Numbered from the stretch's first letter, positions 11,611-28,674 are shown. The stretch: 32,000 nt of DNA from Flavobacteriaceae bacterium (GCA_965224465.1 OZ245049.1:4260001-4292000), one strand, 5' to 3'. A program made the numbers and translations. The notes: generated by a model from the sequence alone, not told the origin.

Positions 11611-12171
11611 ATGGGATCATTTAGAGCTCACCTAGAATTAGGTGGTACCAAATTTGATGTGCTTTTTTCAGAGTACACATTCAGTCGTTCAACAGACAAA
11701 AAAGGAAAAGTATCTTCCAATGTAATCGGAGGAAGAGTTACAGTAGAAATTGAATCAACAGAGGATACTTCAGTAATTGAAGCCATGTTAAACAGTCAAT
11801 TTAAATCTGTAGAAGGGAAATTAGTCTACAAAAAAACAGACGAAGATTCTAAAATGAAAGAAGTAGAATTTAAAAATGCCTACTTATACCAACCACATTT
11901 CCAAGTGACGGTTTAGAAATAGAATTATTTTTTGTTCTAGCTAGGCGGAAAATCTAAGGATAGCCTTAGCTATCGTTCTATTTTTTAACAACGATAGAAC
12001 AAAAAATAAACTATTTATATCGGTTATTTTGGATTGTAGTTGGTATTCATACATTTTACCGAAACTTTAGACGTAAACGGAGACATTCCAATGAAAATTA
12101 GATTTACAGTTTCAGCCGAAGAAATTATCATCGGAAATGCATCCATCGATAATCGTTGGCCAAAAGCATAA
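11611..12171 (+). pseudogene. tssD: T6SS-iii tube protein Hcp/TssD, interrupted by a MITE
   Basis: The 5' part is MGSFRAHLELGGTKFDVLFSEYTFSRSTDKKGKVSSNVIGGRVTVEIESTED...KMKEVEFKNAYL. The 3' part, in the same frame at 12046-12171, is FIHFTETLDVNGDIPMKIRFTVSAEEIIIGNASIDNRWPKA*. Joined, they give ~133 aa with the Bacteroidota TssD pattern as recalled, including the N.WP C-terminus. The intervening 161 bp carries many in-frame stops. Confidence 0.8.
11886..12046 (+). mobile_element. MITE-like element, copy 4, inserted in hcp/tssD
   Basis: TIRs ATACCAACCACA / TGTAGTTGGTAT, with a possible AT target duplication. Internal hairpins are retained, and CTATCGTT/AACGATAG is now perfectly paired. Confidence 0.8.
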
Positions 12172-12227: not shown

Positions 12228-12354
12228 TATTGGGGATTGTTTGATTTTTGAATAAAAACGCACACTTTTCTACAGTATTAAATAACAAAAAACAAGAGGG
12301 ATCCCCATAGTTTTTCTAGCTTTAGTAATAAAAATAATTGCAAAAAAAAGAGAT

Positions 12355-14172
12355 ATGAGTGCACCAAAAACCAGCCTAAGTATAGACGGGAAAACCATTA
12401 CAAGTTTTACTAAAATATACTTAGTTCAAAAAATAAATGACCATCATTTTTTTGAAGTTATTTTAGACAATGATGTGGTAGAAGAAACTGGAGGACATAC
12501 GATAGATAAATCGAAGGGTTGGCTAGGGAAATCATTAATTATAACTTTTGGTACCGTCGATTTCTTAGGTTATATAAGCTCCATAAACCTTGAAAATAAG
12601 GATGGACATAATGGTGATTTAATCATAAAAGGATATTCGCCCACCATACTTTTACAAGGAGGAAAACAATTGTGTTCTTGGCGACAAAACACCTTAGAAG
12701 GTATTGTAAGACAAACCATGGGAGACTTACGAGTACCGTTACTCATAAAACCTACATTTAACGAAGTCATAGAATACCAAGTACAATACAACGAAAATAA
12801 TTATGATTTTTTACAGCGATTGGCAAAACAATACAACGAATGGTTTTATTATAACGGCGTACAATTAATATTTGGGAAACCACCCCAAGAAGAAGCTGTA
12901 GCAATCGAATACGGAAGAGACCTGTCCGAAATACAATTAGAAATAAAAATAAAGGATCACGGACAAACAAAATTTTCTTACAACGCTACCAATAACAGAT
13001 TAATAAGCACTTCGTCCAAGGATCAAGTAGCAGGATTAAACGAACTGGGCTCACATGCCTTTTATACCTCTTTGGAAACCTACAAAAACCCAAAAAATGG
13101 TTTCACCAATATTGAGACTGAAATGAAATCTCAAATAGACGATTTAGTGGCACGTAAACAAGCCACGCTAAGTGCAGGCTTGCATGTAATGAAAGGAAAA
13201 AGCACCAAACAGGGCTTAACCGTAGGAACTGTGATTAAGGTGAGATCTGCCAAGGTAGACGAGGAAACTAGCTTTGACATTAAAAATTATGGGGAGTATA
13301 TGATTACCAATATAAGCCACCATGCTACAGAACGTTCGGAATATTACAACACCTTTGAGGCGATTCCGTCTGGAATTGCAGTACTCGAAGAACCCAAGGT
13401 ATCCTTGCCCAAGGCATCAAACCAACTAGCCACGGTTATGTCTAATGCCGACCCCAGAGAAATGGGACGCGTACAAGTACGTTTTAATTGGCAAATACAC
13501 ACCATGAAAACTTCCTGGATACGTGTAATGACACCCGATGCTGGAAGCAGTAAAAACCATGCAAAAAATAGAGGACATGTTTTTATCCCCGAAGTAAACG
13601 ACCAGGTAATGGTAGGTTTTGAATACAACGATCCCAACCGACCCTTTGTGATGGGGAGTATGTTTCATAGTGAAAATGGCGCAGGAGGAAAACAAGACAA
13701 TAATATAAAATCCATCATTACTAAAAGTGGACATCGTATTGAGTTTAATGATACGCCGAGCAGTGAAAGTATTACCATTACGGATAAAAAAGGCAATCAT
13801 ATAATTATAGATACTAAAAATGAAACAATTAGTATCAATGCATTAAAGGATATTAATATTACTGCGGGAGAAAACATCAACATAAGCGCAGGTAAAAATA
13901 TTGTGGTAAATGCGGGAGAGAATATAGATGAGACGGCTGGACGGAATATATCTGTGGCTGCAGGGAAAGATATGATGTTAAATGCTGCAGGAGAAATGAC
14001 TGAAATTGCTGATAAACGTAAAGATCTAATAGATAAAGATTATAGCCGACAATCCAAAACTTCTGATGAGTATGCAAACCAAATTTCTTTATTTAGTGCG
14101 GCAGAAAACATGACTTTACAAAGTACAAAGACAGTTGTTATTAATAGTGCAGAAAAAAGTAAATTATTTTAA
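12355..14172 (+). CDS. vgrG: T6SS spike protein VgrG/TssI
   Basis: 605 aa. It has a gp27-like N-terminal part and a gp5/gpV OB-fold block (GRVQVRFNWQ...SWIRVMTPDAGS...GHVFIPEVNDQVMVGFEYNDPNRPFVMGSMFH). A C-terminal beta-helix repeat follows (ITAGENINISAGKNIVVNAGENIDETAGRNISVAAGKDM). Confidence 0.9.
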   Translation: MSAPKTSLSIDGKTITSFTKIYLVQKINDHHFFEVILDNDVVEETGGHTIDKSKGWLGKSLIITFGTVDFLGYISSINLENKDGHNGDLIIKGYSPTILLQGGKQLCSWRQNTLEGIVRQTMGDLRVPLLIKPTFNEVIEYQVQYNENNYDFLQRLAKQYNEWFYYNGVQLIFGKPPQEEAVAIEYGRDLSEIQLEIKIKDHGQTKFSYNATNNRLISTSSKDQVAGLNELGSHAFYTSLETYKNPKNGFTNIETEMKSQIDDLVARKQATLSAGLHVMKGKSTKQGLTVGTVIKVRSAKVDEETSFDIKNYGEYMITNISHHATERSEYYNTFEAIPSGIAVLEEPKVSLPKASNQLATVMSNADPREMGRVQVRFNWQIHTMKTSWIRVMTPDAGSSKNHAKNRGHVFIPEVNDQVMVGFEYNDPNRPFVMGSMFHSENGAGGKQDNNIKSIITKSGHRIEFNDTPSSESITITDKKGNHIIIDTKNETISINALKDINITAGENINISAGKNIVVNAGENIDETAGRNISVAAGKDMMLNAAGEMTEIADKRKDLIDKDYSRQSKTSDEYANQISLFSAAENMTLQSTKTVVINSAEKSKLF

Positions 14173-14174
14173 TT

Positions 14175-14351
14175 ATGGCAATAATACGACAAGCAAAAAA
14201 TTATAAGGTTGTTGTTAATAACAACTATCAAGCAGTTATAGGAGGGAAACTGGAGAAATATGCAGATAGTATAACTATTGACGCTATAGATGGTGATTTA
14301 AAATTAGGTAGTAATAAAAAAGTGATAAGTAATGGCGGCTGTGAAAGTTAA
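14175..14351 (+). CDS. 58-aa beta-strand-repeat ORF directly after vgrG; either a separate small gene or a detached N-terminus of the next effector
   Basis: ATG lies 2 nt after the vgrG stop. Sequence MAIIRQAKNYKVVVNNNYQAVIGGKLEKYADSITIDAIDGDLKLGSNKKVISNGGCES resembles the VgrG C-terminal beta-helix periodicity. It overlaps the next ORF by 20 nt in another frame. Below the ORF-track length cutoff. Confidence 0.45.
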   Translation: MAIIRQAKNYKVVVNNNYQAVIGGKLEKYADSITIDAIDGDLKLGSNKKVISNGGCES

Positions 14352-15672
14352 ATTTGGAGAAGTTAAGGTTATAGAAAGAGTTATAATAGGTCCTGTAATT
14401 CCAGCAAAAATAGCTGTACACTTTAGGCCTAAAGATGACTGGAAGGGTGAGTTTGGTTTTGACTGGATGCGTATAGGAGATACAAACTTATTTAACGATG
14501 CAAATTATAAAGCAATCGTTTCTAAACAGTATGAAAAAGGAACAAATACCTTAGAAACAGATGGTAATGTTTATAAAGGTGATTTTAAAAAAGATAAAAC
14601 CCTTTATAACTTATTAAAAAACGACTATAATACTCATACAATACCTTGGAAAACAACAATAAAAAATGGTGTAAAAGTCGCTGAAAATTATTTTGTACCT
14701 TGGTTATCTTTGTATCCTAACGAAGTACCTTGCGATGATAACGGAACACTTTCAACACAAACTATTTACCAAAATACCGAAGCTACTTTAAGTTTAATTA
14801 TTGACATTACAGAGGAAGCCGATTATTTAAAATTCGATACCAACGAACATTTTAAAGAAATCCCCCAAATAAACATTAAAGGAAAAACAGGACTTCTTAA
14901 AACTGAAGAAATAACTATTAGTTGTAAAACAGAATTTACAAGCGACCAAACATTAGTTATACAAGCCTATAAAAAAAATAAAACTACGGGTGAATTAGAA
15001 AGCAATATAGCAGGTAAACTAAAAATTTGGGCAAACGATACTGCTAAACGTAAAAAAACAAAAGTAGTGTTTGTTCAAATAAAGACTCCTGAAATTATTT
15101 TAACGAAAGGTAAAAGAACTGCCGATGCGAGTAAAGAAGAAAAAAGAATCAGCCAATACCTTAACCAAGCTTTAATAGAGTTACACGCTGATTCTGAAAT
15201 AGCAGATTTAGACCTTTCGAGTGTAACAACATTTTTACAATATATAAAAAGCAGAAAAGTGAGTTCTAAAAGTAATATTACAGGAGGCAGTCGTTTAAAA
15301 GATTATTTAAAAGCTCAACTAACCGCTCAATTTGGCACTAAATATGACGGCTTTTTTAAAGCATTTTATTTTGCAGAAGATGGCTATCATTCTAGCGGAG
15401 GTTTGCTAAGTGGTTATTCACAACCTAAAGCTGATTATGTTGTTGTCTTTAAGTCAGCAAACGACCAAACAGCTTCGCATGAGTTTTTACACTCCTTTAA
15501 TTTAGCTCATACGTTTACCAACAAAGTAGCAAGTGCAAACGCAAAATTTACGTATGAATATAAAAAAACAGACAATTTGTTAGATTATTCACATCATATA
15601 GGTAGAAATAATAATAAACGTTGTGGACTTTTTCATTGGCAATGGATACAAGCAAATAATTCTATCACTTAA
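14332..15672 (+). CDS. putative T6SS effector, metzincin-like zinc metallopeptidase
   Basis: 446 aa. HEFLHSFNLAH (15478-15510) matches HExxHxxxxxH spacing, with N where metzincins have G. It sits immediately downstream of vgrG and upstream of an immunity-like gene. Confidence 0.6.
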   Translation: MAAVKVKFGEVKVIERVIIGPVIPAKIAVHFRPKDDWKGEFGFDWMRIGDTNLFNDANYKAIVSKQYEKGTNTLETDGNVYKGDFKKDKTLYNLLKNDYNTHTIPWKTTIKNGVKVAENYFVPWLSLYPNEVPCDDNGTLSTQTIYQNTEATLSLIIDITEEADYLKFDTNEHFKEIPQINIKGKTGLLKTEEITISCKTEFTSDQTLVIQAYKKNKTTGELESNIAGKLKIWANDTAKRKKTKVVFVQIKTPEIILTKGKRTADASKEEKRISQYLNQALIELHADSEIADLDLSSVTTFLQYIKSRKVSSKSNITGGSRLKDYLKAQLTAQFGTKYDGFFKAFYFAEDGYHSSGGLLSGYSQPKADYVVVFKSANDQTASHEFLHSFNLAHTFTNKVASANAKFTYEYKKTDNLLDYSHHIGRNNNKRCGLFHWQWIQANNSIT

Positions 15673-15681
15673 ATTATAATA

Positions 15682-16341
15682 ATGAAACTAATATATTATA
15701 TAGTACTATATACTTTATCATTAAGTTGTATTACACAAAAAACAACAACAATATTAAATAATAACAACATGCAATATCCTGAATATAATATACCTATAAT
15801 AACCAACAAATTTGAAGTTTTTGATATAGAAATTTTCAATAAAGAGGTCAATATAATTAGCAAAAAAAGAGTAATCCAAAATGATTTAATCTACCTAGAA
15901 GAAAATTACCAAAAACCTGGATATATACGCAGAATTTACGAGAATGAGTCTTTTTTTATGATTAGTAAATTCTTTTATGACAATGGTAATATAAAATCAA
16001 AAATTATTTCTTTTAACAATGGTTCTCCATATGGTATTTGGTACGAATTCAACGAAGAAGGTAAACTCATAAAAGAAACGGATTATAATCAACCAAAAAA
16101 CAAAATAGGTTGGCGTTATATATTAAGATACTGTAATAAAAATAACATTCCATTAACAAAAGGCTATAAAGAATTTTCAGGGTTTCAGACAACTATTTAT
16201 TTAGATAAAGATGTAGAAAAAGAACAGGGCATTTGGACAATAACTTGGCAAATAGCAGGCGACAAACTAAAAGAGATAAAATTACACGGATTTTCAGCTC
16301 GTATAATTAGTGAAAAAGAATTAGAATTTATAAACCCTTAA
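15682..16341 (+). CDS. candidate immunity protein with MORN-variant (YwqK-like) repeats and a signal/lipoprotein N-terminus
   Basis: N-terminus is MKLIYYIVLYTLSLSC. Repeats FYDNGNIKSK...NGSPYGIWYEFNEEGKLIKETDYN resemble YwqK-family antitoxin/immunity repeats. There is a 9-nt gap after the effector gene. Confidence 0.55.
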   Translation: MKLIYYIVLYTLSLSCITQKTTTILNNNNMQYPEYNIPIITNKFEVFDIEIFNKEVNIISKKRVIQNDLIYLEENYQKPGYIRRIYENESFFMISKFFYDNGNIKSKIISFNNGSPYGIWYEFNEEGKLIKETDYNQPKNKIGWRYILRYCNKNNIPLTKGYKEFSGFQTTIYLDKDVEKEQGIWTITWQIAGDKLKEIKLHGFSARIISEKELEFINP

Positions 16342-16388
16342 TGAGATAAATATTCATTTTGCAGAGGCTAACTCTAAAAATAAAAACT

Positions 16389-16686
16389 ATGCCACAAAAA
16401 AATAAAAGAAACCGCTCAATTAGAATGCGACAAAGGGACAATCCTTGTTAAATTGGTGGCAACCGAAGAAGATGACAAACCAAATGAAAACATACAACCG
16501 TTAGGTAGCTGTAAATTATAACCAATAGCAAGCGGCTATGCACCTTGCGTACCGCAAACTCAAAAATGGACTAAAACGGCCAAACTCGATGAGATTAACG
16601 AAATGAAAATAGTATTAAAAAATGAAGAGATATATAAAGTATTCCGTTGGGTAGATGAAAAACGAAACAGCCATTTTGGAGTATAG
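16389..16686 (+). pseudogene. decayed DUF4280 (PAAR-like) gene
   Basis: After ATG 16389 the frame shifts in an A-run. The shifted frame reads KETAQLECDKGTILVKLVATEEDDKPNENIQPLGSCKL*PIASGYAPCVPQTQKWT. This parallels GATCECIQGTLPDILKV...FGQCKLQPTPSGYKTCQPNITEWN of the intact DUF4280 gene at 18047. An in-frame TAA is present. Confidence 0.65.
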
Positions 16687-16880
16687 AAAAAAGACTAAAA
16701 AAAGACTTTAATAACAATACGATACTTACTAAATATTATTACAGGAACTATTATAGAAGAAAAGGAAGAAGCGTATATATATGAAGAATACTAAGCTAAA
16801 ATGTAGTTTATGTATACTTAGCACAGTACGATTAGTTAAAACTATTGATTTTATAAAATAACAACTTTAAAGCGTATATT

Positions 16881-18035
16881 TTGACATATTTTTTAAGATA
16901 CAAAGTTACATCGACCGATACAATTGAGTCTATCGCTAAAAAACACCATTTAGATATAGAAGATCTAAAGGAGTATCACAATAATAAATCCTCTATATAT
17001 GATAGGATTTTATTTGGGATCCCCGAGCATGTAAAGGAGATAGTGCTACCTCCTAAAGGTTTTACACTTAATAATGGTAAAGAAGTTTGGGACAAGATAT
17101 ATGGGGATAAACCTGTACACGTAAAGCTTTCTTATAGTGGAAAGTTTTACAATACTAAATTTATAGGCGATCTTGCTTATGCTGTTTTTAAAACCATAGA
17201 GACTGCTAGCAATAAAACAACTATTAAATACCACGTAAGTATTCGTTTTTATGTGAATGATAATAATAAACATTATGTTTCTATAGATGTTACTTCCAGC
17301 ACATATATAAACAATGAAGAGCCAGACCTTATTACCGACGAATTAGCTATTTCTTGTATGAAGTCTTTATATCCTATTGTTTTACAGCTGGATAATGACG
17401 GATTGTTGGTGGAAATACAAAACCATGATGCTATTTTGTCCCGTTGGAAAAAGCAAAAGATAATAAATCTAACATATTATAAAGGAAAGGTGGCCGAAAA
17501 TTATTTTCAACTTTTTGAACAAGCATTAGCTTCAAAAAGCAGCTTACTTCATTTTTTGAAAAAGGATTGGTTTTTTCAAGTCTATTTTAACAAAATATAC
17601 GCAAAGTATACACCTAATTACGATTTAGAGAGTGTGTTAAGTTTTTCCATATTACCAAATACTACTCCTGTGCAATTTACGGTTAGACAAGAAGTTGATA
17701 CGTATTTAAAGAATCAACAAATAAAAATTGAATTAAAAGGACTGTGTTCGGACCCTAGAAGTAGGACAGAATTGGAAAACGGAAATTACTTTCCTGCAAT
17801 GATTCATAAAAACCCGATTCCAGTAGTAGGGAAGTATAGGGCATTGTATTTTTTACATCCAAGGACAAAAAAAATAAAAGCTGCATTTTTAGAATGTAGT
17901 TTAAAACTTGAACAAGAGAAACGGATAAGCATTTCTATATCAGAAATAAAAAACAATGAAAGCAACAGGCATCCGGATGCTATTATAGAACCCAAAGAAA
18001 AGAAAGCTTCTTTTTTTAAAATGTTATTTTCATAA
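16881..18035 (+). CDS. LysM-like N-terminal domain protein of unknown function, possibly an adaptor for module 2
   Basis: 384 aa. The N-terminus YKVTSTDTIESIAKKHHLDIEDLKEYHN fits the LysM consensus (Y.V..GDT...IA......L...N). Only a TTG start is available, because a stop lies at 16854-16856 and there is no upstream ATG. Confidence 0.5.
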   Translation: MTYFLRYKVTSTDTIESIAKKHHLDIEDLKEYHNNKSSIYDRILFGIPEHVKEIVLPPKGFTLNNGKEVWDKIYGDKPVHVKLSYSGKFYNTKFIGDLAYAVFKTIETASNKTTIKYHVSIRFYVNDNNKHYVSIDVTSSTYINNEEPDLITDELAISCMKSLYPIVLQLDNDGLLVEIQNHDAILSRWKKQKIINLTYYKGKVAENYFQLFEQALASKSSLLHFLKKDWFFQVYFNKIYAKYTPNYDLESVLSFSILPNTTPVQFTVRQEVDTYLKNQQIKIELKGLCSDPRSRTELENGNYFPAMIHKNPIPVVGKYRALYFLHPRTKKIKAAFLECSLKLEQEKRISISISEIKNNESNRHPDAIIEPKEKKASFFKMLFS

Positions 18036-18552: not shown

Positions 18553-21222
18553 ATGCCAAAAGGAGTTAAAAAAATAAAGCTATACAAAGGAATGTACTAT
18601 CCGGACCAGTCGGCTTCATTAACCACGCAAGTTACTATACAGCCAGATCAGTTTGTCTCTTTTAAAGTAGAAGAATGGCTTCCGGACACTACGGAAGCTG
18701 AAAAAGAAGAAGGTGTATATTGGATGCGGCAATCACAAGATCGTAGAACAATTATATATAAAAATAAAGCTAAAGAGTATCAATTTAAAATAGGGAAAAA
18801 ATTATGTGGCCCTTATTCTTTTTATATAGAAGCGAGTAGGTCTGGAAACCGAGACTTTAAAAATAAAGCGGGTATATATGTAAGCGGATCTACAACAGCT
18901 CTTATAAAAGCGAGTGATTGGCGAAAAACAAAAAACGGAGAGGATATTAAAAATAGTGACCCTATAAAATATGGAGAACTAGTTTATTTATGGCTAGAAA
19001 CCGAAGGTCTAAACGGGGATGATGTAACAATTGAAATTTATAATAAAGCACTGGGAAGCGATGATTTAATTTTTACATACACAAATGTTACTATAGAAGA
19101 CGGGGAAGTGTTTCTTAAAATTGGAAATACTGCTTCTTGGATGGCTAAGGTTAATAACATAAGGGGAATAGAGAAATTTTGCATTAAAGTTAAGAAAGAT
19201 GGTAAATATATTCAAGACCATCTAGATGATGATATACATGCCGTATATCTTAATGTTAAAAAAGAATTAGCATCTGCTCAAACACTGCCTTCAGAAAATA
19301 TCACAGCTACTAAAGTGTTTAAAACTGAGGTAAATGCAGAACGCCACGACCCTTGCAGATTTACTGAAATTAAAGTAACTGAACTAAAAGAAAAAAACGG
19401 AAAATTAAAACCCATAACCATCTCTATTTTTAAGGATGGTCAAAAAAGAGAAGGACAAAGAATTATTAAGGAATATATAAACCGAATTATTAACTTTAAT
19501 TTTAATGATGCAAGTTTACGACCAGATGCTCAAAAAAAATTAAATAATATTTTAGGGTTTCTATTAGGGCATAAAGGAACAGAAATAACAATGAAAGGAC
19601 ACGCTTGTGTTATAGGTGATATAGATTTTAACAAATTACTATCGCAACAACGCAGCGATGCCGTTAAAGCTTTTTTTGTAAAAGGAGGTTTAGACGCTAG
19701 ACGAATGAATAGCTTAGGATTTGGAGAGTTTAATGTAGAAGAAGTTGATACTATTGCAAATAGAGACAAAGCCAGTTATATAAACTCACGTAAAGTGGAC
19801 GTATCCTTTACATTTGACGCCCATGATGCCAATACATTGGTTTATGAAACTGTAGCAGGAAGCGAAAAATATAGCACCGATTTAACGATTGATATTACAG
19901 ATTTTGATACAAAAGATTGCTTTAGAGATACAGATAAACACAATGAAAAAGTAATAATAGAAAGTGATGTAGCCAAAGAAGTAACCGCAAACGGAAAAAA
20001 AGGTATTTTATATCCCGTATTTTCTACGCTGCCAGACCAAAAAGATTTTTTTGATGCCAACTATTATGCTGCTTTAGAATATCTTTGGCCATCCAATGCA
20101 AAAAGTAATGAGTTTTATTTTTTCCTTAATTCGTGCCGGTATTATTCAAATAAAAAGAAAGCCACTCTTGTAGTAAAGACCTATCCAGATATAAAATGGA
20201 CACTGGCATTTGAATTAGCTATAAATATATCTCATAAGAAGTTTTCGAATATGCCAGAAGGAGCTATCTGGAATAAACATTGGAAAGATGCTCAGCCAGC
20301 AGGAGTTGCAAGAAGCCTTATTAATAGACGAAATAAAGAAGGAAAACTTACTCCAAAAGCTGGCGTACCAATTAAATGGGGGTTTGGTATTGAAGCGGAA
20401 TGGAATAAAAAGAATTCTAAACGTAAATTTAGTGCAGAAATAGAAAGTAAAATCAGGAAATTTACAGACACTGTAGAGGAAGTTGCAGGTGTACTAGACC
20501 AAGCCAGTGAATGGGGAAGAAATGCGGCCGAATTTACAGGATTACCAATTACATTTGATATTATATACCCTAAAGTTTCTTTTGGAATATCTTGGTATGC
20601 AGAAGGGGCTCAAAAAAACGGTAAACTAGCCACCGTTGGCGAAATTGGTTTTGCAGCAGATCCTTTAATTGGGGCAGTTGGCACTGTAGATTTAATTGCA
20701 GCAACCATATATGCCATCTCTATTGGAACAACAGGTAGTCCTGCTGTAGTAAAGCTATATAACAAGTTTACAGGGATTGCAGAAAACCTTGGTGCGAGTG
20801 TTGCCTTTGATGCTGTTTTTACAGGTGAATTGTTTATTAAATTTCCTAATTTACAAATACATAGTGTAAATGGTATTAAGCTTGACGGTGGGTTTGATCT
20901 TGGGGGAAAATTTACTATGGCTATAAGATTAGAAATTAGTATAGAAGTTGGTAAAATAGAATCTTCAAAAAAAGCTCCAATTATAAAAATAAGTGTATCT
21001 GCTATAATGCAAATAGGATTTGGTGGTTCGCTAAAGATTGATTCAGACAAATATGGCGTGTATATAATACCTAAAGTTGAGTTTTCGGGTGCAAAAATTG
21101 TAGCAGAAATTAAAGGAGAATTTGGCTGGTGGAGTTGGATGGGCGTCAGTTATACTCTAGAAGAAGTGATTATCGAGCCTAGTTCGTACACAATGGATAA
21201 AACATATATTTCAGGAAGTTAA
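18553..21222 (+). CDS. large putative T6SS effector: unknown N-terminal region, degenerate OmpA-like domain, Gly-rich amphipathic C-terminal domain (candidate membrane-active toxin)
   Basis: 889 aa. The OmpA_C-like block spans ~19480-19815 (FNFNDASLRPDAQKKLNNILGFLLGHKGTEITMKGHACVIGDIDFNKLLSQQRSDAVKAFFVKGGLDARRMNSLGFGE...NSRKVDVSF). The C-terminal ~250 aa are rich in G/A/I/V with alternating beta-like patterns (GAVGTVDLIAATIYAISIGTTGSPA...GFGGSLKIDSD...). Confidence 0.6.
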   Translation: MPKGVKKIKLYKGMYYPDQSASLTTQVTIQPDQFVSFKVEEWLPDTTEAEKEEGVYWMRQSQDRRTIIYKNKAKEYQFKIGKKLCGPYSFYIEASRSGNRDFKNKAGIYVSGSTTALIKASDWRKTKNGEDIKNSDPIKYGELVYLWLETEGLNGDDVTIEIYNKALGSDDLIFTYTNVTIEDGEVFLKIGNTASWMAKVNNIRGIEKFCIKVKKDGKYIQDHLDDDIHAVYLNVKKELASAQTLPSENITATKVFKTEVNAERHDPCRFTEIKVTELKEKNGKLKPITISIFKDGQKREGQRIIKEYINRIINFNFNDASLRPDAQKKLNNILGFLLGHKGTEITMKGHACVIGDIDFNKLLSQQRSDAVKAFFVKGGLDARRMNSLGFGEFNVEEVDTIANRDKASYINSRKVDVSFTFDAHDANTLVYETVAGSEKYSTDLTIDITDFDTKDCFRDTDKHNEKVIIESDVAKEVTANGKKGILYPVFSTLPDQKDFFDANYYAALEYLWPSNAKSNEFYFFLNSCRYYSNKKKATLVVKTYPDIKWTLAFELAINISHKKFSNMPEGAIWNKHWKDAQPAGVARSLINRRNKEGKLTPKAGVPIKWGFGIEAEWNKKNSKRKFSAEIESKIRKFTDTVEEVAGVLDQASEWGRNAAEFTGLPITFDIIYPKVSFGISWYAEGAQKNGKLATVGEIGFAADPLIGAVGTVDLIAATIYAISIGTTGSPAVVKLYNKFTGIAENLGASVAFDAVFTGELFIKFPNLQIHSVNGIKLDGGFDLGGKFTMAIRLEISIEVGKIESSKKAPIIKISVSAIMQIGFGGSLKIDSDKYGVYIIPKVEFSGAKIVAEIKGEFGWWSWMGVSYTLEEVIIEPSSYTMDKTYISGS

Positions 21223-21234
21223 AAAATAATAATT

Positions 21235-22095
21235 ATGAAAAACACAAAATTTGAAAAACCATATTACTCAATTTATGTTTACGAATTGAGTGCAGGTGAA
21301 ATATGGGTGAATGATGTGCCTCTTTTAAATTGGAAAGGACCACAAACTACGGATGGTGTGTATAATGGGAACATACCTATTAATCAAGTAGTATTACAGA
21401 ATGGTGTTTATGAGTTGAAGTGTATATTAAAGCCTCACTATGGTCAAAAAAAGTTGGTTAATACTATTGAGTCCTCTGTTTACACTATTGGGTTTCGTTG
21501 TAGACATGTAGATAATATAAAAAGTGGTATAAATGTAAATGGAGATGTTTATATTATGGAAAGACCTTATCAAAAGAGTTCTTCTGATTATAACTGGAAA
21601 GATCCCCTTATTAATTTAGAAGTGTATGTTGATGTGACGAAATTAACAATTACAGAACTCCCTTTTGTATTAGATGGTTGGCAAAACTCTGTAGATTTAT
21701 CTAAAATTAAAGAAAAGGTGCTGTTTCAAGAGGTTTTAGACTATTATCGCCAAATACATGCTATAATGGCTGCACACAATGCAACTAAGTTTTTAGAATT
21801 ATCTGAAGAAAAAATGAAACTGCAAGAACAAGCATTTTACTTTACCGAAGAGCGCAAAAAAAGCTTTAGAGCAGGAGCCATAAGTTTATTTAGTCAAAAA
21901 CTAGCGCCATTACCATTGGTTCCTTCAAATTTAAAATTACAAATTATGGGATATGGTAAATTAGTGCGCCTATTACAATTAGATGGGAGTGCTGCATTAC
22001 AATACGCAAGTCCAAAACCAGCGGAGCAAAGCAATATAGAGCTGGATGTAAAACTACACATGCGGAGTCAAGATAAAGGACTTAGTGTAATTTAA
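21235..22095 (+). CDS. 286-aa protein of unknown function, no signal peptide, paralogue A
   Basis: ORF lies 12 nt after the effector stop. It is paralogous to 22588..23448 and distantly to 30899..31675. Confidence 0.6.
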   Translation: MKNTKFEKPYYSIYVYELSAGEIWVNDVPLLNWKGPQTTDGVYNGNIPINQVVLQNGVYELKCILKPHYGQKKLVNTIESSVYTIGFRCRHVDNIKSGINVNGDVYIMERPYQKSSSDYNWKDPLINLEVYVDVTKLTITELPFVLDGWQNSVDLSKIKEKVLFQEVLDYYRQIHAIMAAHNATKFLELSEEKMKLQEQAFYFTEERKKSFRAGAISLFSQKLAPLPLVPSNLKLQIMGYGKLVRLLQLDGSAALQYASPKPAEQSNIELDVKLHMRSQDKGLSVI

Positions 22096-22106
22096 AACCT
22101 TATTTT

Positions 22107-22583
22107 ATGCAACGAAGAAACTTTATGAAAAACATAGCCATAAGTACAATTGGCATTTCATTTTCAGGAATTTTATTAAATTGCGCTGGAAAAGTAATGT
22201 ATTTGGATACTTTAATAGGACAAGCTGAGGATGTACTAAAAGGATTTGAAAAAGAAGGCGACAGCAATTTCTCCTATTATATTATTTCGAGTTTTGAGCA
22301 TTCTTTTTTTTCAGGGGATGTGGTTTTTGTTTTTTGTAAAAACAATACAATAGTTGGTTTTTCAGTGAAAAGAAACAATAATAAAGCAAGCAAAGAGATA
22401 GAAGCATTGTCAGAATTGTATGGTACTAAAAAAATAACCTACGAGAGTGACTTTGGAATAGAATACCAATGGAAAACAGCTGATAGAAGAATTTCTTTAA
22501 GCCATACTAAAACGTATAAAGACTTTCCTCAAAACACCTTCTATAGCGAAGCTTTATTAGATAGTAAACTGATTGTAGTGTAA
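22107..22583 (+). CDS. 158-aa lipoprotein with Tat-like signal, candidate immunity protein
   Basis: MQRRNFMKNIAISTIGISFSGILLNCAG carries a twin-arginine RRxF(L/M)K motif plus a lipobox-like LLNC. Confidence 0.6.
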   Translation: MQRRNFMKNIAISTIGISFSGILLNCAGKVMYLDTLIGQAEDVLKGFEKEGDSNFSYYIISSFEHSFFSGDVVFVFCKNNTIVGFSVKRNNNKASKEIEALSELYGTKKITYESDFGIEYQWKTADRRISLSHTKTYKDFPQNTFYSEALLDSKLIVV

Positions 22584-23533: not shown

Positions 23534-24658
23534 CTTAAATTCAACTAATAAACGCAACTTTTCGATTTGATTCTATGATGGTTATATTTTCAAAACAGAA
23601 AAGTAGGAAAACCTACCTTTCTTGTCTTGATGGATATGTATCTTACGGTCTCAAATCTCGAAAAAAGAAGTTGTATGAAACACATCACCCAAGCGCAAAG
23701 ATACACAATTTGTTGCATGTTAAAACAAGGTTATAAACAGGTTGAGATAGCAGCTGCTATAGGAAAAGACAAGTCTGTTATTAGCAAAGAGATTAAGCGT
23801 AATTCAGACAAAAGAAATGGAGTTTACAAGCATGAATTAGCCCAAAAAAAGTATGCTAAACGTCATAAAGAAAAGCCTAAAAGAAAACGCTTTACAGAAG
23901 ATATTCAACAAGCAATAGAGTTGTTATTGCGAGACGATTATAGTCCTGAGCAAGTAGTTGGTGTCCTAAAAAAACAAGGTAAAGAAACGGTGTCTATTGA
24001 GCGTATATATCAGCATATTAGGGAAGACAAGAGGAATGATGGTGATTTACATACACACCTTCGCAGACAGGGAAGGAGATATAGAAAACGTGGCTCATCA
24101 AAGGATTCTAGAGGGGTTATAAAGAATCGTATTAGTATAGAACAACGCCCTGAAGTTGTTGAACAAAGAAATCGATTTGGAGATTTAGAGGTCGATTTAA
24201 TCATAGGTAAAAACCATAATCAAGCCATACTTACCGTAAATGATAGAGCTTCTGGAATGCTTAAAATGAAAAAAGTAAGCTCTAAAGAAGCAGTTGTTGT
24301 CACTAAAGCTATCAATGAAATATTAGAAGACTGGAAGCCTTATCTACATACTATAACAGCTGATAATGGAAAAGAATTTGCAGGCCATGAGCAGGTTGCA
24401 GAAAATTTATGTATTGATTACTTTTTTGCGCATCCATATCACTCTTGGGAAAGAGGATCTAACGAAAATTTAAATGGTTTGATTAGACAATATTTTGCCA
24501 AAGGAAGTGACTTTACAAACCTAACAGATCAAAGAATCAAAGAGGTAGAAACAAAATTAAATAACAGACCTAGGAAGAGACATAAATATCAAAACCCTAT
24601 ATTTGTAATGGAACAATTATTATTTAACTAAAAGTTGCGTTTGTGACTTGAATTCAGC
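23534..24658 (+). mobile_element. IS30-family insertion sequence
   Basis: ~1125 bp. Imperfect ~25-bp TIRs (AATTCAAsTmAyAAACGCAACTTTT). The 3-bp AAT is duplicated at 23531-23533 and 24659-24661. A single transposase ORF is present. Confidence 0.85.
23675..24631 (+). CDS. IS30-family DDE transposase
   Basis: N-terminal HTH MKHITQAQRYTICCMLKQGYKQVEIAAAIGKDKSVISKEIKRN. DDE region contains LEVDLIIG, ITADNGKEF and HPYHSWERGSNENLNGLIRQYF. The track ORF begins at a TTG at 23627; the ATG at 23675 is preferred. Confidence 0.9.
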   Translation: MKHITQAQRYTICCMLKQGYKQVEIAAAIGKDKSVISKEIKRNSDKRNGVYKHELAQKKYAKRHKEKPKRKRFTEDIQQAIELLLRDDYSPEQVVGVLKKQGKETVSIERIYQHIREDKRNDGDLHTHLRRQGRRYRKRGSSKDSRGVIKNRISIEQRPEVVEQRNRFGDLEVDLIIGKNHNQAILTVNDRASGMLKMKKVSSKEAVVVTKAINEILEDWKPYLHTITADNGKEFAGHEQVAENLCIDYFFAHPYHSWERGSNENLNGLIRQYFAKGSDFTNLTDQRIKEVETKLNNRPRKRHKYQNPIFVMEQLLFN

Positions 24659-25067
24659 AATTGCTCTGGAGAAGTAATGTCTTTAGATAATTTAATCGGG
24701 CAATCAGAAGATATACTAAAAGGGTATAACAAAGAAGGCGACAGCAATTTCTCCTATTATATTATTTCGAGTTTTGAACATTCTTTTTTTTCAGGGGAAA
24801 AAGTTTTTGTTTTTTGTGAAAACAATACAATAGTTGGTTTTTCGGTAAAAAGAAACAACAATAAAGCAAGCAAAGAAATAGAAGCATTGTCAGAATTATA
24901 TGGAACTAAAAAAATAACCTACGAGAGTGACTTTGGAATTGAATACCAATGGAAAACAGCTGCTAGAAGAATTTCTTTAAGCCATACCAAAACGTATAAA
25001 GACTTTCCTCAAAACACCTTCTATAGCGAAGCTTTACTAGATAGTAAACTGATTGTAGTGTAAAATT

Positions 25068-25139
25068 ATGGAAAACACAAAATTTGAAAAGCTCTTTTAC
25101 TCTGTTTATATTTATGGGTTGAGTGCAGGATCTAAGTAA
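25068..25139 (+). pseudogene. remnant (first 21 codons) of a third 286-aa family copy
   Basis: MENTKFEKLFYSVYIYGLSAG matches the paralogue N-termini. Homology stops at 25130, where sequence related to the effector gene begins. Confidence 0.75.
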
Positions 25140-26823
25140 ATCAATTGTCTCTTTTAAAGTAGAAGAATGGCTTCTGGGCACAACCGAAGCTGAAAAAAGA
25201 AGCGATGCTATAAAGGCTTTTTTTGCAAAAGGAAAACTAGATCCAGACCGTATTACATCTGTAGGTTATGGAGAAGCTAATCGTAAAGATAAGGATTCTT
25301 CCGCATTTATAAACGAAAAGGATTATATAGAGGCGAGGCGGGTAGATATTTCTTTTAACATTCCAGTGCATCAAGCAATAGTTTATGAAACTATTGCCCC
25401 AAGTCATAAAAAAAACATCACTATAGATGTTACGGATTTTGATACAAAAGATTGTTTTAGAGAAGCAAACAAGCATAAAGTAGAAATCCTGGTACTATCG
25501 GACAATGCAACAGAAAAAAACGGAGCTAACTCTTTAGAGTTCCCCATACAATCCACCTTGTCAGCAGCAAACCCAGCTCCTTTACAATATATCTGGCCAA
25601 AATACAACCTAATTAATCCAGAAAAAAGCATGGACGCTGCAGCAACCTATATTGCGCATATACATAGTTGTCGGTATTTTTTTAATGCTCATACCCCTAC
25701 AGTGGTTGTAAAAGCATATCCTGATATTAAGTGGGATTTTCACTTATTTTTAAATTTAAGTAATAGTTTGGCTGTGAAATCGCAAAACCTTTCTCCTGCA
25801 CAACATAAAAAAATGCAAAGTAATGCAGGGAAAATTGGCGCCGAAAAACGCTGGAAACAAACCGATATAGATTTTGGTGTTGTACTTGCCGCAAAATGGG
25901 ATAAAAACCCAACTACAAGTAATTATGGAAGTGAATTAGACCTCACATTAAAATGGGAAGATAAGATAAAACGTTTTTATCAGATTTTTTCTCAATTAAA
26001 AGAAGCTTCTAAAATAATAGCTGGAAAAACAAAAAGTACAGCTGGAAAAACAGTTGGTAAAAAATTTCCTTTAGACGTTGATGTTTTACCTCCTAATTTA
26101 TGTCTAGGTGTCGAATGGCAATTGGAAAGAGGTATAAAAAATAATAAAGAAAGTACAGAGTTAGGGACATTATTAAAGTTTTATTTTAAAGCAGAGCCAC
26201 TTCTAGGAATAGAGCTAACTTTTGATTTGTTAAATGCTGCTGTTACAGCCGTAGCAAGTCCAGCTGCGGCTTTAATTGTTTCAGAAATAAGAGATTGGCT
26301 AAAAGGTGATGATGATGAAAACAGACCACTATCAATCGATATATATCTTAATTTAGTTGTTTTTGGTACAATTCAAATCTCAGATTTATCATTACAATAC
26401 AACACCGCTTCTGATAGTACAGATCCAAAACAAAAAGCACAATTAGACGCATCTGCAACTGTAGGTTTAAAGATAGAAGCAGGCTTGGTTGTAAAAGCCA
26501 GATTAGTAGTAATAGTAGGCGAATTTTATGCACAAGCCTACGCTAAGTTTGAAGGTTTAGGCTCTATAACCTTTGGGCATAAGTTAGTACATCAAACTAG
26601 TAAATTATACTATAGACCTAAACTAATGTTTGATGGTGTCACGGCTAAGGTAGAAATTAAAGCGGAAATAGGACTTTTAATTAAAAAGGGATGGTTTGAA
26701 GGTGATTATAATAAAGATCTAGTAGATTTTAACGAAAAATATGAATTGTTTAAACCTTTTGACATCATTGAAGGCATAGAAAAATTAACAGGATTAAGTG
26801 CGAATATAACACTCTTAGGATAA
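25123..26823 (+). CDS. orphan effector cassette 1: 5'-truncated, internally deleted paralogue of the 889-aa effector
   Basis: Only a GTG start is available. SIVSFKVEEWLLGTTEAEK matches main-gene codons at ~18653-18705. The sequence then jumps in frame to RSDAIKAFFAKGKLD (main-gene 19651 onward), so about 315 codons are missing. The rest is collinear but diverged over the full C-terminal domain. Confidence 0.7.
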   Translation: MQDLSKSIVSFKVEEWLLGTTEAEKRSDAIKAFFAKGKLDPDRITSVGYGEANRKDKDSSAFINEKDYIEARRVDISFNIPVHQAIVYETIAPSHKKNITIDVTDFDTKDCFREANKHKVEILVLSDNATEKNGANSLEFPIQSTLSAANPAPLQYIWPKYNLINPEKSMDAAATYIAHIHSCRYFFNAHTPTVVVKAYPDIKWDFHLFLNLSNSLAVKSQNLSPAQHKKMQSNAGKIGAEKRWKQTDIDFGVVLAAKWDKNPTTSNYGSELDLTLKWEDKIKRFYQIFSQLKEASKIIAGKTKSTAGKTVGKKFPLDVDVLPPNLCLGVEWQLERGIKNNKESTELGTLLKFYFKAEPLLGIELTFDLLNAAVTAVASPAAALIVSEIRDWLKGDDDENRPLSIDIYLNLVVFGTIQISDLSLQYNTASDSTDPKQKAQLDASATVGLKIEAGLVVKARLVVIVGEFYAQAYAKFEGLGSITFGHKLVHQTSKLYYRPKLMFDGVTAKVEIKAEIGLLIKKGWFEGDYNKDLVDFNEKYELFKPFDIIEGIEKLTGLSANITLLG

Positions 26824-26881: not shown

Positions 26882-27475
26882 ATGAACAAACTATTTAAAA
26901 TATTTTTAATGGCTTCTATGATGCAAAGTTGTGGATCGCAAACAGATTTTGATTTAACGCAACTAACTCTAAAAGGAGAAAAAATTGGAGACTTTGTTAC
27001 AAAGGACATGACAAAACAGGTATACCCATTAGTCAATAAAACAGTTACAGATAAAGAATATATAATTGTCAAAAGTGATAAGTTGCTAAAATTTAATAGC
27101 ACAAATTTAATTGGACGTCAAAATCCAAATAGTCATAAATATGGTATAAATGGGGTGTCTTTTTATTATACTAAAGTAGATAGTATCATTTATAAATATA
27201 CAATTTCTATTTATTCTAAAAAACAAGCAAAAGACCTACTTAAGGCTTTATATGAAAAATTGGGTAAACCTAACTACACTAGCTATAGGAGTGCTGAAGA
27301 TAAAGAAAAGAATAATTTTAACGCCTTGCTATGGGAGGATACTGTAAATAATCACTTATATCAACTTCGATATGGTTTAAACGGTACAGTAAAGGCAAAT
27401 TTAGAAGTGAAAAATAACTCTACAAACATTCAAGAGTTAAATATAATCAGGGCAAACTCACACTTTAATGCTTAA
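26882..27475 (+). CDS. lipoprotein, candidate immunity for orphan 1; 3' end displaced by ISAs1 insertion
   Basis: Signal and lipobox are MNKLFKIFLMASMMQSC. The last 9 codons and the stop are supplied by IS sequence. The native continuation resumes at 28685 and ends at 28820 (GSFGYWEDFLYTRQQQKNLKYSYQEYLSERLKNDSNDFKNQLTK*). Confidence 0.65.
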   Translation: MNKLFKIFLMASMMQSCGSQTDFDLTQLTLKGEKIGDFVTKDMTKQVYPLVNKTVTDKEYIIVKSDKLLKFNSTNLIGRQNPNSHKYGINGVSFYYTKVDSIIYKYTISIYSKKQAKDLLKALYEKLGKPNYTSYRSAEDKEKNNFNALLWEDTVNNHLYQLRYGLNGTVKANLEVKNNSTNIQELNIIRANSHFNA

Positions 27476-28674
27476 TACTTTTAACAGATATGCTTGATTC
27501 CAGCCTGCTTTAAGTCTTTTTCCAGCAATACCTTGTTTCTCCGTTTTTTCGTTTCTCAATAGATTCAGGGCAATTTTCAATAGTATTGAATAGTTTTGAG
27601 CTGCATTTTTATTTCTTTTTCTAGAGGCATCCTCTGAGAATGCAACATCCAATGTCCAATGTAATTTATTCTCTACACCCCAATGAGAACGAATATGACT
27701 TTGATGATTTACAGCGGTATCTTTTAAGCTAGAAATGTAATATCTAGTTGCCTTTTCTGTTTGTTTATCACTGTTTTTGAACTCCCTTATACTTTCTATT
27801 TTTATAACTTGAGTCAACTTATTCCATTTATTATCTGCGTTCTTAATAAATTGAAAATCAGAAATTACGCTACATTTTCTAGTTTCAATTCTTCCATGAC
27901 CAAGGTCAAAGTCTGTATCTATTTCTATGTTTTTTGAGAATTTGAATTCGTCCTTTATTTCCTCTAGTAGTTGTTTTTGATTTCCCTTTACGGCAAGTAT
28001 GTAATTGGCATCATTTTTTATAATCTTATCCGCAATATCAGTTTGAGTTCCCATTGCGTCTATTGTAATTATATTGCCTTCTATACACAAAGTATCAAGT
28101 AATTCCGGGATCGCAGTTATCTCATTAGATTTTTCATTGACTCTAATTTGACCCAAAACTAAATTGTTTTGATCAGCCCATGCGCTCACCATATGTACAG
28201 GTGATTTTTTTCCATTTGATTTTGCTCCTCTAAGCGCTTTTCCATCAATAGCTATTACCTGCCCTTTTGATATAGTTGAAATAGAATTGACCCATTCTAT
28301 GAAACATGTTTCAAGCTGAGAACTGTCTATCGACGAGAATACCCTGTTAATAGTGTCTTCTGATGGTATTCCATTTGGTAATTGTAGAAATTTCCTTAAA
28401 AAACCTTCTTTTGAACAAGCAAACTCAACCATTTGTTTCCATGTTTCTGCTCCACAAATGACTGAAATTATCCCAATAAGGAGGATGTCAACCAAGTTGT
28501 GTAACTTGTTTATATCGCTTCTAGGGTCTTCTATATTGCCAAAAATACTCATTATTTTACTGTCTGAATTCATATCGTTACCTATCTAATTATCAACATA
28601 ATATACTGATAATTAACGAGGTAAGCAACTTAAATTCAATGAAATTAACTTAAAAATAGTATGAGTTTGCCCTG
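27448..28674 (-). mobile_element. ISAs1-family insertion sequence
   Basis: 1227 bp with TIRs CAGGGCAAACTCA / TGAGTTTGCCCTG. A perfect 10-bp target duplication TAAATATAAT lies at 27438-27447 and 28675-28684. Confidence 0.9.
27458..28573 (-). CDS. ISAs1-family transposase (H-repeat-associated type)
   Basis: 371 aa with IEDPRSDINKLHNLVDILLIGIISVICGAETWKQMVEFA, VIAIDGKALRGA, ITIDAMGTQ, AVKGNQ and HWGVENKLHWTLDVAFSEDASR. Confidence 0.9.
   Translation of the reverse strand: MNSDSKIMSIFGNIEDPRSDINKLHNLVDILLIGIISVICGAETWKQMVEFACSKEGFLRKFLQLPNGIPSEDTINRVFSSIDSSQLETCFIEWVNSISTISKGQVIAIDGKALRGAKSNGKKSPVHMVSAWADQNNLVLGQIRVNEKSNEITAIPELLDTLCIEGNIITIDAMGTQTDIADKIIKNDANYILAVKGNQKQLLEEIKDEFKFSKNIEIDTDFDLGHGRIETRKCSVISDFQFIKNADNKWNKLTQVIKIESIREFKNSDKQTEKATRYYISSLKDTAVNHQSHIRSHWGVENKLHWTLDVAFSEDASRKRNKNAAQNYSILLKIALNLLRNEKTEKQGIAGKRLKAGWNQAYLLKVLSIKV

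Follow-up and report, generated by a model that had tools for sequence, protein, structure and literature searches.

What is encoded by an 889-residue open reading frame (ORF) that lies among the spike genes of a type VI secretion system (T6SS) and carries an OmpA-like domain in its middle? The question is raised by a stretch of Flavobacteriaceae DNA of 32,000 nt (OZ245049.1, 4260001–4292000; low in GC, about 32%), referred to below as the window, within which a T6SS-iii island was analyzed. A first-pass annotation had read the ORF, at 18553–21222, as a secreted effector and a candidate novel membrane-active toxin. We computed the family membership of its product, its domain order, the set of accessory and immunity genes around it and the non-canonical motif of the OmpA-like domain, and conclude, with a probability of roughly 0.8, that it is a cargo effector of the Bacteroidota T6SS-iii and a member of the Bte3 family.

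Bte3 and Bti3 have been described for the GA3 T6SS of Bacteroides fragilis (Nat Commun 2026; PMC13402684). Bte3 requires a cognate VgrG, the adaptor Ate3 (a BtapC ortholog) and Pte3, a PAAR-like DUF4280 protein; it acts broadly, kills Escherichia coli only when exported to the periplasm as a pelB fusion, and is neutralized by the lipoprotein Bti3, whose protection needs its lipoprotein localization (PMC13402684). The ORF in the window likewise sits in a cargo module of VgrG, adaptor (p384) and DUF4280 PAAR-like genes, in keeping with its reading as a secreted effector, and is followed by a gene for a 286-residue protein (p286a) resembling Bti3.

The relationship to B. fragilis is distant and depends on profiles. 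The effector family profile weakly matches Bacteroidales proteins from Porphyromonas macacae and from a Bacteroidales metagenome-assembled genome, and only a profile seeded with these two reached a 768-residue protein (P0326) that represents 268 member sequences and shares 99% identity with a GenBank fragment from B. fragilis. A profile of members lacking the OmpA-like segment had only Flavobacteriia and Sphingobacteriia among its best 120 matches. The effector aligns with P0326 by BLASTP at E 3e-13, and hhalign of the two families gives 99.92% and E 3e-35 over 569 columns, joining effector residues 106–860 to B. fragilis residues 125–734 and leaving residues ~300–420 as an unmatched insertion. 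The partners follow the same pattern: the p286 family aligns over its full length with the 325-residue lipoprotein encoded downstream of P0326 in locus L081 (hhalign 99.4%, E 4e-21), p384 matches orf2, a 315-residue protein of a Bacteroidales bte3-type locus (L082), at E 2e-13 (BLASTP), and the DUF4280 proteins of the window and of that locus match at E 3e-11. On these sequence comparisons the effector, adaptor, DUF4280 tip and p286 are all homologous to the Bacteroidales module.

That this module is the one studied experimentally is a strong inference from length, species, locus layout and abundance, by which P0326 would be Bte3 itself or its allele Bfe3. Its gene lies directly after VgrG and before the 325-residue lipoprotein gene. 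In the locus of a close relative (P0319) the order is VgrG, effector, 325-residue lipoprotein, orf1, 315-residue protein and DUF4280 protein, followed by a second effector pair and then TssF and TssG, which is the bte3 layout described in PMC13402684. In the L082 locus, orf1 (12260–13270, 336 residues) has no Pfam match and no counterpart detected in the window, and the genes for a 491-residue protein and a TPR protein after the DUF4280 gene (14987–17199) are presumably a bte4/bti4-type pair.

The family is large. A word-indexed search with the C-terminal 469 residues returned only two near-identical fragments, and an exhaustive HMMER search was needed to recover the C-terminal domain in 272 representative 50%-identity clusters with E<=1e-3, of which 56 reach E<=1e-30; the domain is thus no product of chance. 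Most cluster representatives have 870–950 residues with the C-terminal domain at the same position, and the organisms in which the family occurs include Chryseobacterium, Flavobacterium, Tenacibaculum, Aquimarina, Sinomicrobium, Pedobacter, Mucilaginibacter, Chitinophagaceae and Capnocytophaga. Shorter members (~745–790 residues) lack the OmpA segment; a 776-residue Capnocytophaga relative, for example, aligns to effector residues 1–280 and 405–858 and skips the region between.

The gene neighborhood is conserved as well. Of 80 related loci (L001–L080), found from an alignment of the effector's seven closest sequences, 79 have a DUF4280 gene immediately upstream of the effector, 78 have the p384 gene, 67 have VgrG on the upstream side and 76 have a p286-like gene downstream. 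Which gene comes directly after the effector varies with the C-terminal subtype of the effector. Effectors of the window type are followed by a p286 relative (43–54% identical), with a detectable relative of the window's 158-residue lipoprotein (lip158) next in eight loci; those resembling a 566-residue effector paralog, also encoded in the window, are followed directly by lipoproteins of the lip197 type (L030, L073, L074 and L080).

How the protein might be loaded is suggested by its N-terminus. AlphaFold2 models residues 1–250 as all-beta, with predicted local distance difference test (pLDDT) values mostly >90 (81.9 for the full-length model). Besides OmpA domains, the sole strong Foldseek match of the full-length model is 9jg8_C, a chain of the VgrG-bound cargo complex (E 6e-7, 265 columns, template modeling (TM) score by target 0.56). 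The match is gone when the query is residues 421–889 only and thus belongs to the N-terminal beta-sandwich region; as chains A and B of 9jg8 are BtapC and BtpeA, chain C should be BtaeB. This region is 44% identical to an OmpA-less relative (P0026), and a PDB sequence search with the N-terminal 316 residues gave no match. The other two chains are reached from the neighboring genes: p384 matches 9jg8_A, 'Bacteroides T6SS Adapter Protein C' (phmmer, E 6e-5), and the DUF4280 protein aligns with BtpeA (9jg8_B) over the latter's PAAR-like N-terminus (E 3e-15). Together, the matches of adaptor, tip and effector N-terminus to one complex point to the same mode of mounting cargo on the spike. Fte1 of F. 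johnsoniae, considered as a further family member, was rejected; it is the DUF4280 protein Fjoh_3275.

The protein might also be mainly a structural part of the spike on which T6SS assembly depends, its OmpA-like domain helping the apparatus to engage the wall of the firing cell, and no toxin in this organism. Deletion of bte3 does abolish Hcp secretion in B. fragilis (PMC13402684), and OmpA-like peptidoglycan-binding domains are found in T6SS membrane-complex accessories such as TagL (5m38 is among the fold matches). We nevertheless regard this as very improbable: Bte3 alone is toxic in the E. coli periplasm and Bti3 protects against it (PMC13402684), the effector has no signal peptide or transmembrane segment with which to reach the producer's periplasm, and divergent effector paralogs in arrays, with downstream genes that vary along with them and with orphan copies of immunity genes, are the hallmark of a polymorphic toxin.

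The OmpA-like domain itself is well founded. Pfam OmpA (PF00691) matches residues 315–395 (nt 19495–19737) at E 6.6e-11 and 42.9 bits, against a cut-off of 27.2, and 16 OmpA/Pal/YiaD models of NCBIfam match the same stretch. phmmer retrieves solved OmpA C-domains (e.g. 5wtp_A, E 5.5e-11 over residues 301–417), and in the AlphaFold2 model Foldseek superposes the region on the C-domains of OprF, OmpA and Pal (E 7e-8 to 1e-5) with TM-scores by target of 0.8–0.9 (e.g. 5u1h, 3td5, 4g4w and 1oap). PF00691 is also matched by 28 of 50 aligned relatives, and the OmpA core is present in 146 of 185 family members of >700 residues (about 79% of the long members sampled).

Its ligand-binding motif is altered. 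In OmpA– and Pal–peptidoglycan complexes such as 3td5, the aspartate of the G-H-T-D motif contacts meso-diaminopimelate (DAP). Aligned to Capnocytophaga OmpA, the effector's G-H-A-C-V-I-G pairs with G-H-T-D-S-T-G, so that threonine is replaced by alanine and aspartate by cysteine. The first-pass annotation had correctly noticed the loss of the canonical TD, but the 'CV' it put in its place is one residue out of register; the true replacement is AC (GHAC). A-C occupies these positions in 136 of the 146 OmpA-bearing relatives (93%; G-[YHF]-A-C) and T-D in only three, a distribution by which the substitution is an old, selected trait of the family and not decay. The arginine of LSxxR(A) is kept, R367 being invariant in the family alignment and paired with the corresponding arginine of 5wtp. 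The domain is also the best-conserved block of the protein (39% mean pairwise identity, versus 25–28% elsewhere in alignment A2), which argues that it is functional. A role as a peptidoglycan anchor, as first suggested, is weakened, because the DAP-binding aspartate is absent in 93% of the family. As to cysteines, C352 of GHAC is invariant in the OmpA-bearing members, and C268, C456 and C528 are conserved from Flavobacteriia to the B. fragilis relatives (alignments A2, A8 and A10); the conserved cysteines may form disulfides only after reaching the target's oxidizing periplasm.

A strongly conserved OmpA-like domain without its DAP-binding aspartate fits a protein–protein role better than peptidoglycan binding, and this bears on one of two possible modes of killing to which we give similar, and in both cases tentative, weight within the Bte3 family assignment. 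The C-terminal domain, the OmpA-like domain or both could act without catalysis by titrating a periplasmic or outer-membrane factor, such as OmpA/Pal-type tethers or components of lipoprotein trafficking or outer-membrane protein biogenesis, with envelope failure but no pore as the result. There are precedents among Bacteroides T6SS effectors: BteO of B. fragilis is non-enzymatic and binds OmpA C-domains, and Bte1 binds PpiD–YfgM (PMC12541434). The authors of the Bte3 study propose a conserved outer-membrane target (PMC13402684), and immunity candidates that are a soluble protein and a lipoprotein would suit interface mimicry or sequestration. Set against such binding, neither our analysis nor the Bte3 paper identifies a target, and OmpA-less members including Bte3 are toxic, so the OmpA-like domain is not the core toxic principle.

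The C-terminal half is where toxicity is more plausibly sought. It begins with a conserved beta domain (residues 421–545) that contains invariant C456, H463, C528-R-Y and YPDIKW and has the highest conservation of this half (46% mean pairwise identity). The last ~250 residues, which had been taken as a domain of their own, are rather the second half of a ~345-residue unit (residues ~546–889) preceded by this beta domain. A sharply polymorphic boundary of a C-terminal toxin cassette was considered and rejected; identity falls only gradually, from 46% to 30%, and there is thus no clear recombination junction.

The composition noted earlier for the C-terminus is borne out. Residues 641–889 contain 12.0% glycine, 9.2% alanine, 7.6% valine, 12.4% isoleucine and 0.8% arginine, and the first four sum to 41%, compared with 25% in residues 1–300; the peptides quoted as examples are found at residues 707–733 (GAVGTVDLIAATIYAISIGTTGSPAVV) and 855–864 (GEFGWWSWMG). 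Modeled alone (109 sequences), residues 421–889 reach a pLDDT of 81.3 and a predicted TM-score of 0.75. Besides the beta domain the model has a low-confidence loop and, within residues 546–889, a helix of 33–36 residues, five strands of 19–23 residues and a helical hairpin between two of the strands. The hairpin (residues 714–745) is rich in Ala, Gly, Ser, Thr and Ile and follows an invariant PLIGA..IDLIA; it keeps its character from the Flavobacteriia through to B. fragilis, with a Kyte–Doolittle maximum over 19 residues of 1.4–1.9 that is borderline for membrane insertion. The strongest such window, 1.79, is centered on residue 715.

Pfam and NCBIfam show no catalytic signature in the C-terminal domain, in agreement with the first-pass annotation. 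Residues 421–889 have no sequence match in Pfam, NCBIfam or the PDB, including a search of the PDB with a C-terminal profile. The comparison by AlphaFold and Foldseek that had been proposed as a check gave no significant match to any structural family, either in the PDB (best E 0.026, TM-score at most 0.16) or in BFVD, and the modeled fold is new relative to solved structures, which agrees with the description by the Bte3 authors (PMC13402684). The weak neighbors are lipid-transfer sheets and TonB-dependent barrels; these are generic long-strand sheets on which we do not rely.

These features allow the second possible mode of killing, in which the hairpin and the amphipathic strands insert into a membrane, possibly after open barrels oligomerize into a closed one, and dissipate the membrane potential or permeabilize the cell. 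Such pore formation, the mechanism favored by the first-pass annotation, is compatible with membership in the Bte3 family. It would account for a C-terminus rich in G, A, V and I with almost no arginine, the conserved hairpin, the five long strands, the lack of a catalytic motif and the membrane barrels among the weak structural neighbors, and for Bte3 both SDS-resistant species of high molecular weight and a toxicity confined to the periplasm have been described (PMC13402684). Several points speak against it: searches of Pfam, NCBIfam, the PDB and BFVD gave no significant match to a known pore-former by sequence or structure, the hairpin's hydrophobicity is borderline for a transmembrane helix, and strands that alternate between hydrophobic and polar residues are no less typical of soluble beta-sheets. 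Moreover, the pore-forming T6SS toxins VasX, Tse4 and Ssp6 have integral-membrane immunity proteins, whereas the candidates here are a soluble protein and a lipoprotein.

The Bte3 barrel has been described as 'open' with enclosed hydrophobic helices (PMC13402684), and a cavity of this kind might instead sequester phospholipid, lipopolysaccharide or lipoprotein acyl chains in the periplasm. The best Foldseek neighbors, microsomal triglyceride transfer protein and vitellogenin, point the same way, although none is significant (E 0.026–0.2, probability <=0.6) and neither the E-values nor the TM-scores (at most 0.15) rise above noise. Searches of Pfam, NCBIfam and the PDB also failed to connect the sequence with LolA, LptA, Tle or lipid-transfer families, and we consider lipid binding or extraction improbable.

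The immunity genes pose a separate problem. Both copies of the Bti3-like gene in the window, p286a and p286b, begin directly at the conserved domain, and under the ORF definition applied no upstream in-frame start is possible. Among p286-like copies in the related loci, 63 of 78 lack a signal peptide and 14 of 78 have a lipobox like B. fragilis Bti3; in the loci examined, the signal-less copies generally adjoin a gene for a secreted protein or lipoprotein of 160–220 residues. A PDB sequence search with the p286 profile gave no match. The p286–lip158 pair occurs twice in the window, having been duplicated as a unit, and an IS30 element interrupts the second copy; the duplication suggests a part in immunity for both genes. 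lip158 and its truncated copy (24677–25063) are 91% identical in DNA over 472 bp, and the signal-peptide codons of the latter are lost next to the IS30 element. p286 and the lipoprotein may form a two-component, two-compartment immunity system.

One could go further and see the OmpA-like insert not as an ordinary peptidoglycan anchor but as a re-purposed docking module that recognizes the target's OmpA/Pal-type tethers or a modified peptidoglycan stem and places the open barrel at the junction of outer membrane and cell wall, with protection in the Flavobacteriia in two layers, a cytoplasmic Bti3-like protein before loading and a periplasmic lipoprotein against incoming toxin. We offer this as speculation that is unlikely to be right; if true, it would mean that the Bte3 family has a targeting principle and an immunity logic that are both new, and it would point to the target of Bte3.

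Returning to the Bte3-family cargo effector as the preferred reading, the following course of events seems most consistent with the data. The beta-sandwiches of residues 1–250 would load the effector on the VgrG spike together with the adaptor and the DUF4280 tip, as suggested by the Bte3 experiments and by homology to the cargo complex solved for B. fragilis. The spike would be fired into a Gram-negative neighbor and the effector would act in its periplasm, a site of action that was proposed earlier and that homology to B. fragilis Bte3 makes likely (PMC13402684). The toxic part would be residues ~421–889, a beta domain and an 'open beta-barrel' of long strands around the hydrophobic hairpin, and this C-terminal unit most likely kills non-enzymatically, by inserting into, or binding to, some conserved envelope component in the outer or the inner membrane. 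The OmpA-like insert would position the toxin at the peptidoglycan/outer-membrane tether layer, probably through non-canonical peptidoglycan binding or contact with OmpA/Pal-type proteins. Self-protection would come from p286a, probably together with lip158, as homology and synteny indicate. Loading, periplasmic delivery, toxicity and Bti3-like neutralization are carried over by analogy from the Bacteroides experiments.

Several points weigh against this reading. (i) P0326 is equated with Bte3 by length, species, layout and abundance, not by sequence identity, and the effector is only 24% pairwise identical to it. (ii) The AlphaFold2 secondary structure (beta only in residues 1–250, a beta domain in 421–545 and a long-strand sheet with helices in 546–889) is compatible with Bte3 apart from the OmpA-like insert, but this and the 'open barrel' are judged from the secondary-structure string only. 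(iii) The Bti3-like proteins of the window are signal-less, whereas Bti3 protects only as a lipoprotein (PMC13402684), so the immunity logic may differ here. (iv) The hcp gene beside the cargo module is disrupted and insertion sequence (IS) elements flank the array, so expression and delivery of the window copy are not assured.

The condition of the island can be seen from its gene content (Table 1). The first ~11 kb of the window hold housekeeping genes (M28 peptidase, TPR protein, ABC ATPase, HAD hydrolase and RNase T-like exonuclease); a one-directional gene array then begins at ~11.6 kb and is a T6SS auxiliary cargo island of the Bacteroidota kind.

Table 1. Features of the T6SS-iii island in the window and domains of the effector, in nucleotide order (residue numbers are those of the effector unless stated)
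Feature	Position (nt)	Strand	Remarks
hcp/tssD	11611..12168	+	Pfam TssD E 4e-27 on 101-aa ORF; interrupted by insert 11886-12046
VgrG spike protein, 605 aa	12355..14172	+	Pfam Phage_GPD, Phage_base_V, DUF2345; NCBIfam VgrG models
446-aa HExxH-containing protein	14332-15672	+	HEFLH motif, weak Reprolysin_5 match; directly after VgrG
219-aa MORN-like protein with signal peptide	15682-16341	+	
p384, adaptor of BtapC/Ate3 type, 384 aa	16881..18035	+	phmmer, BLASTP
DUF4280 PAAR-like spike tip, 164 aa	18047..18541	+	Pfam DUF4280 E 1.1e-19
Effector, 889 aa	18553-21222	+	ORF of the first-pass annotation
Effector residues 1-250, two beta-sandwich domains	18553..19302	+	Putative spike-loading module
Effector residues 315-420, OmpA-like domain with GHAC	19495..19812	+	HMM, phmmer, fold; inserted relative to Bacteroidales relatives
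Effector residues 421-545, conserved beta domain	19813..20187	+	Equivalent to Bte3 'beta3'; aligns with B. fragilis residues ~313-415
Effector residues 546-889, toxin candidate domain	20188..21219	+	Homologous to residues ~415-734 of the B. fragilis 768-aa protein
Effector residues 714-745, hydrophobic, small-residue-rich helical hairpin	20692-20787	+	AlphaFold2
p286a, Bti3-like, 286 aa, no signal peptide	21235..22095	+	Immunity candidate
lip158, 158-aa lipoprotein	22107..22583	+	Lipobox in N-terminus MQRRNFMKNIAISTIGISFSGILLNC; second immunity candidate
p286b, second Bti3-like gene, 286 aa	22588..23448	+	76% identical to p286a; orphan immunity copy
IS30-type transposase	23627..24631	+	Pfam HTH_38; rve and HTH_32 weak, sub-threshold
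5'-truncated lip158 copy, no signal peptide	24677..25063	+	92% identical to lip158 residues 31-158
Effector paralog, 566 aa, lacking residues 52-363	25123..26823	+	Rearranged, N-terminally deleted
lip197, 197-aa lipoprotein	26882..27475	+	Lipobox MMQSC; cognate partner of 566-type effector
IS4-type transposase	27458..28573	-	Pfam DDE_Tnp_1_assoc, DDE_Tnp_1

A tblastn search with a 132-residue Aquimarina Hcp covers 11611–12168 across in-frame stops. The insert in hcp (~161 bp) is bounded by imperfect terminal inverted repeats of 24 nt and contains a perfect hairpin of 15 nt, and the two Hcp halves lie in the same frame with stop codons between them; it looks like an insertion of the miniature inverted-repeat transposable element type that has made hcp a pseudogene. 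The genes for the 446-residue and 219-residue proteins, neither of which has relatives in the 80 related loci, are probably a second, unrelated effector–immunity pair.

The 566-residue paralog is 30% identical by BLASTP to effector residues 364–858, with a further 17-residue match to residues 35–51. Its gene takes its first ~40 nt from a p286 5' end, continues with effector codons 35–51 and then runs from codon 364 to the end. By sequence it is a rearranged, recombination-scarred remnant between IS30-type and IS4-type transposases that cannot be loaded onto the spike; a full-length ortholog of 911 residues (80% identity) is present in L030. The window's copy of the island may be decaying.

On this assignment, the Bte3 family occurs widely among Bacteroidota from the environment (Chryseobacterium, Flavobacterium, Aquimarina, Pedobacter and Chitinophagaceae). 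Structural orthologs have been reported in free-living Bacteroidota (PMC13402684), and the environmental members are now tied to Bte3 by sequence profiles, beyond fold alone; their commonest form carries the internal, altered OmpA-like domain. Because of this domain, databases label such toxins by it, and the public names of hundreds of family members are 'OmpA family protein', 'outer membrane protein OmpA-like peptidoglycan-associated protein' or 'hypothetical protein'. The OmpA label wrongly implies a structural protein of the envelope, and a likely annotation error for hundreds of proteins is thereby corrected. The insert is in addition a testable clue to the toxin's site, the peptidoglycan/outer-membrane tether layer, and the signal-less Bti3-like proteins with their lipoproteins raise a concrete question about the mechanism of immunity. 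The word 'novel' in the first-pass annotation was too strong, as the family has been known since 2026, along with the accessory proteins and the immunity family that belong to it (PMC13402684); the novelty lies in an OmpA-like insertion that is both conserved and altered, and in the unusual way in which immunity is arranged.

How does the window effector compare with systems already known? With VasX, Tse4, Ssp6, Tme and Tke5/BTH_I2691 it shares the lack of an enzymatic motif, a Gly/Ala-rich hydrophobic segment (here borderline for membrane insertion) and a predicted attack on the envelope from within the periplasm. It differs in being mainly beta and not helical, in immunity candidates that are not integral membrane proteins and in being loaded by a Bacteroidota-specific adaptor and PAAR-like protein, not through MIX, DUF4123 or Hcp; the general Pfam and NCBIfam scans gave no match to these toxins and the PDB fold search no significant one, and no direct comparison with their families was run. 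BteO, compared by literature and by analogy only, is likewise a periplasmic Bacteroidota T6SS effector without an enzymatic motif that is connected with the OmpA-like/peptidoglycan tether layer, but BteO targets OmpA domains and the window effector contains one.

Within the PF00691 family (OmpA, Pal, OprF, MotB and TagL), the likeness consists in an HMM score above the cut-off, the close fold match and the retained arginine. The differences are the cysteine that replaces the DAP-contacting aspartate in 93% of relatives and the position of the domain inside a secreted toxin, not in an envelope-resident protein. The BtpeA–BtaeB–BtapC complex (9jg8) corresponds to the window module in adaptor and tip by sequence and in the effector N-terminus by fold. 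There, however, an effector (a DUF3289 protein) carries the PAAR-like domain as a fused part, whereas the window encodes this domain as a stand-alone protein of 164 residues, and no chain of the complex has sequence similarity to the effector's C-terminal domain.

The closest system is Bte3/Bti3. The window effector differs from Bte3 by an OmpA-like insert of ~120 residues before 'beta3' (889 versus 768 residues) and by gene order, with adaptor and tip upstream of the effector and not downstream of the immunity gene as in Bacteroides; its Bti3-like protein is without a lipoprotein signal and has a separate small lipoprotein as its partner, and its host is a low-GC member of the Flavobacteriia, not a gut Bacteroides. 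The two are nevertheless homologous over ~570 columns, which extend from the second beta-sandwich through to the C-terminal domain's end, and they share the motifs PCK[FY]T, C...H, CR[YH], YPD.KW and PLI.A.G.IDLIA, and a common setting of a cognate VgrG, a BtapC/Ate3-like adaptor, a DUF4280 tip and a Bti3-like neighbor around an effector without an enzymatic signature.

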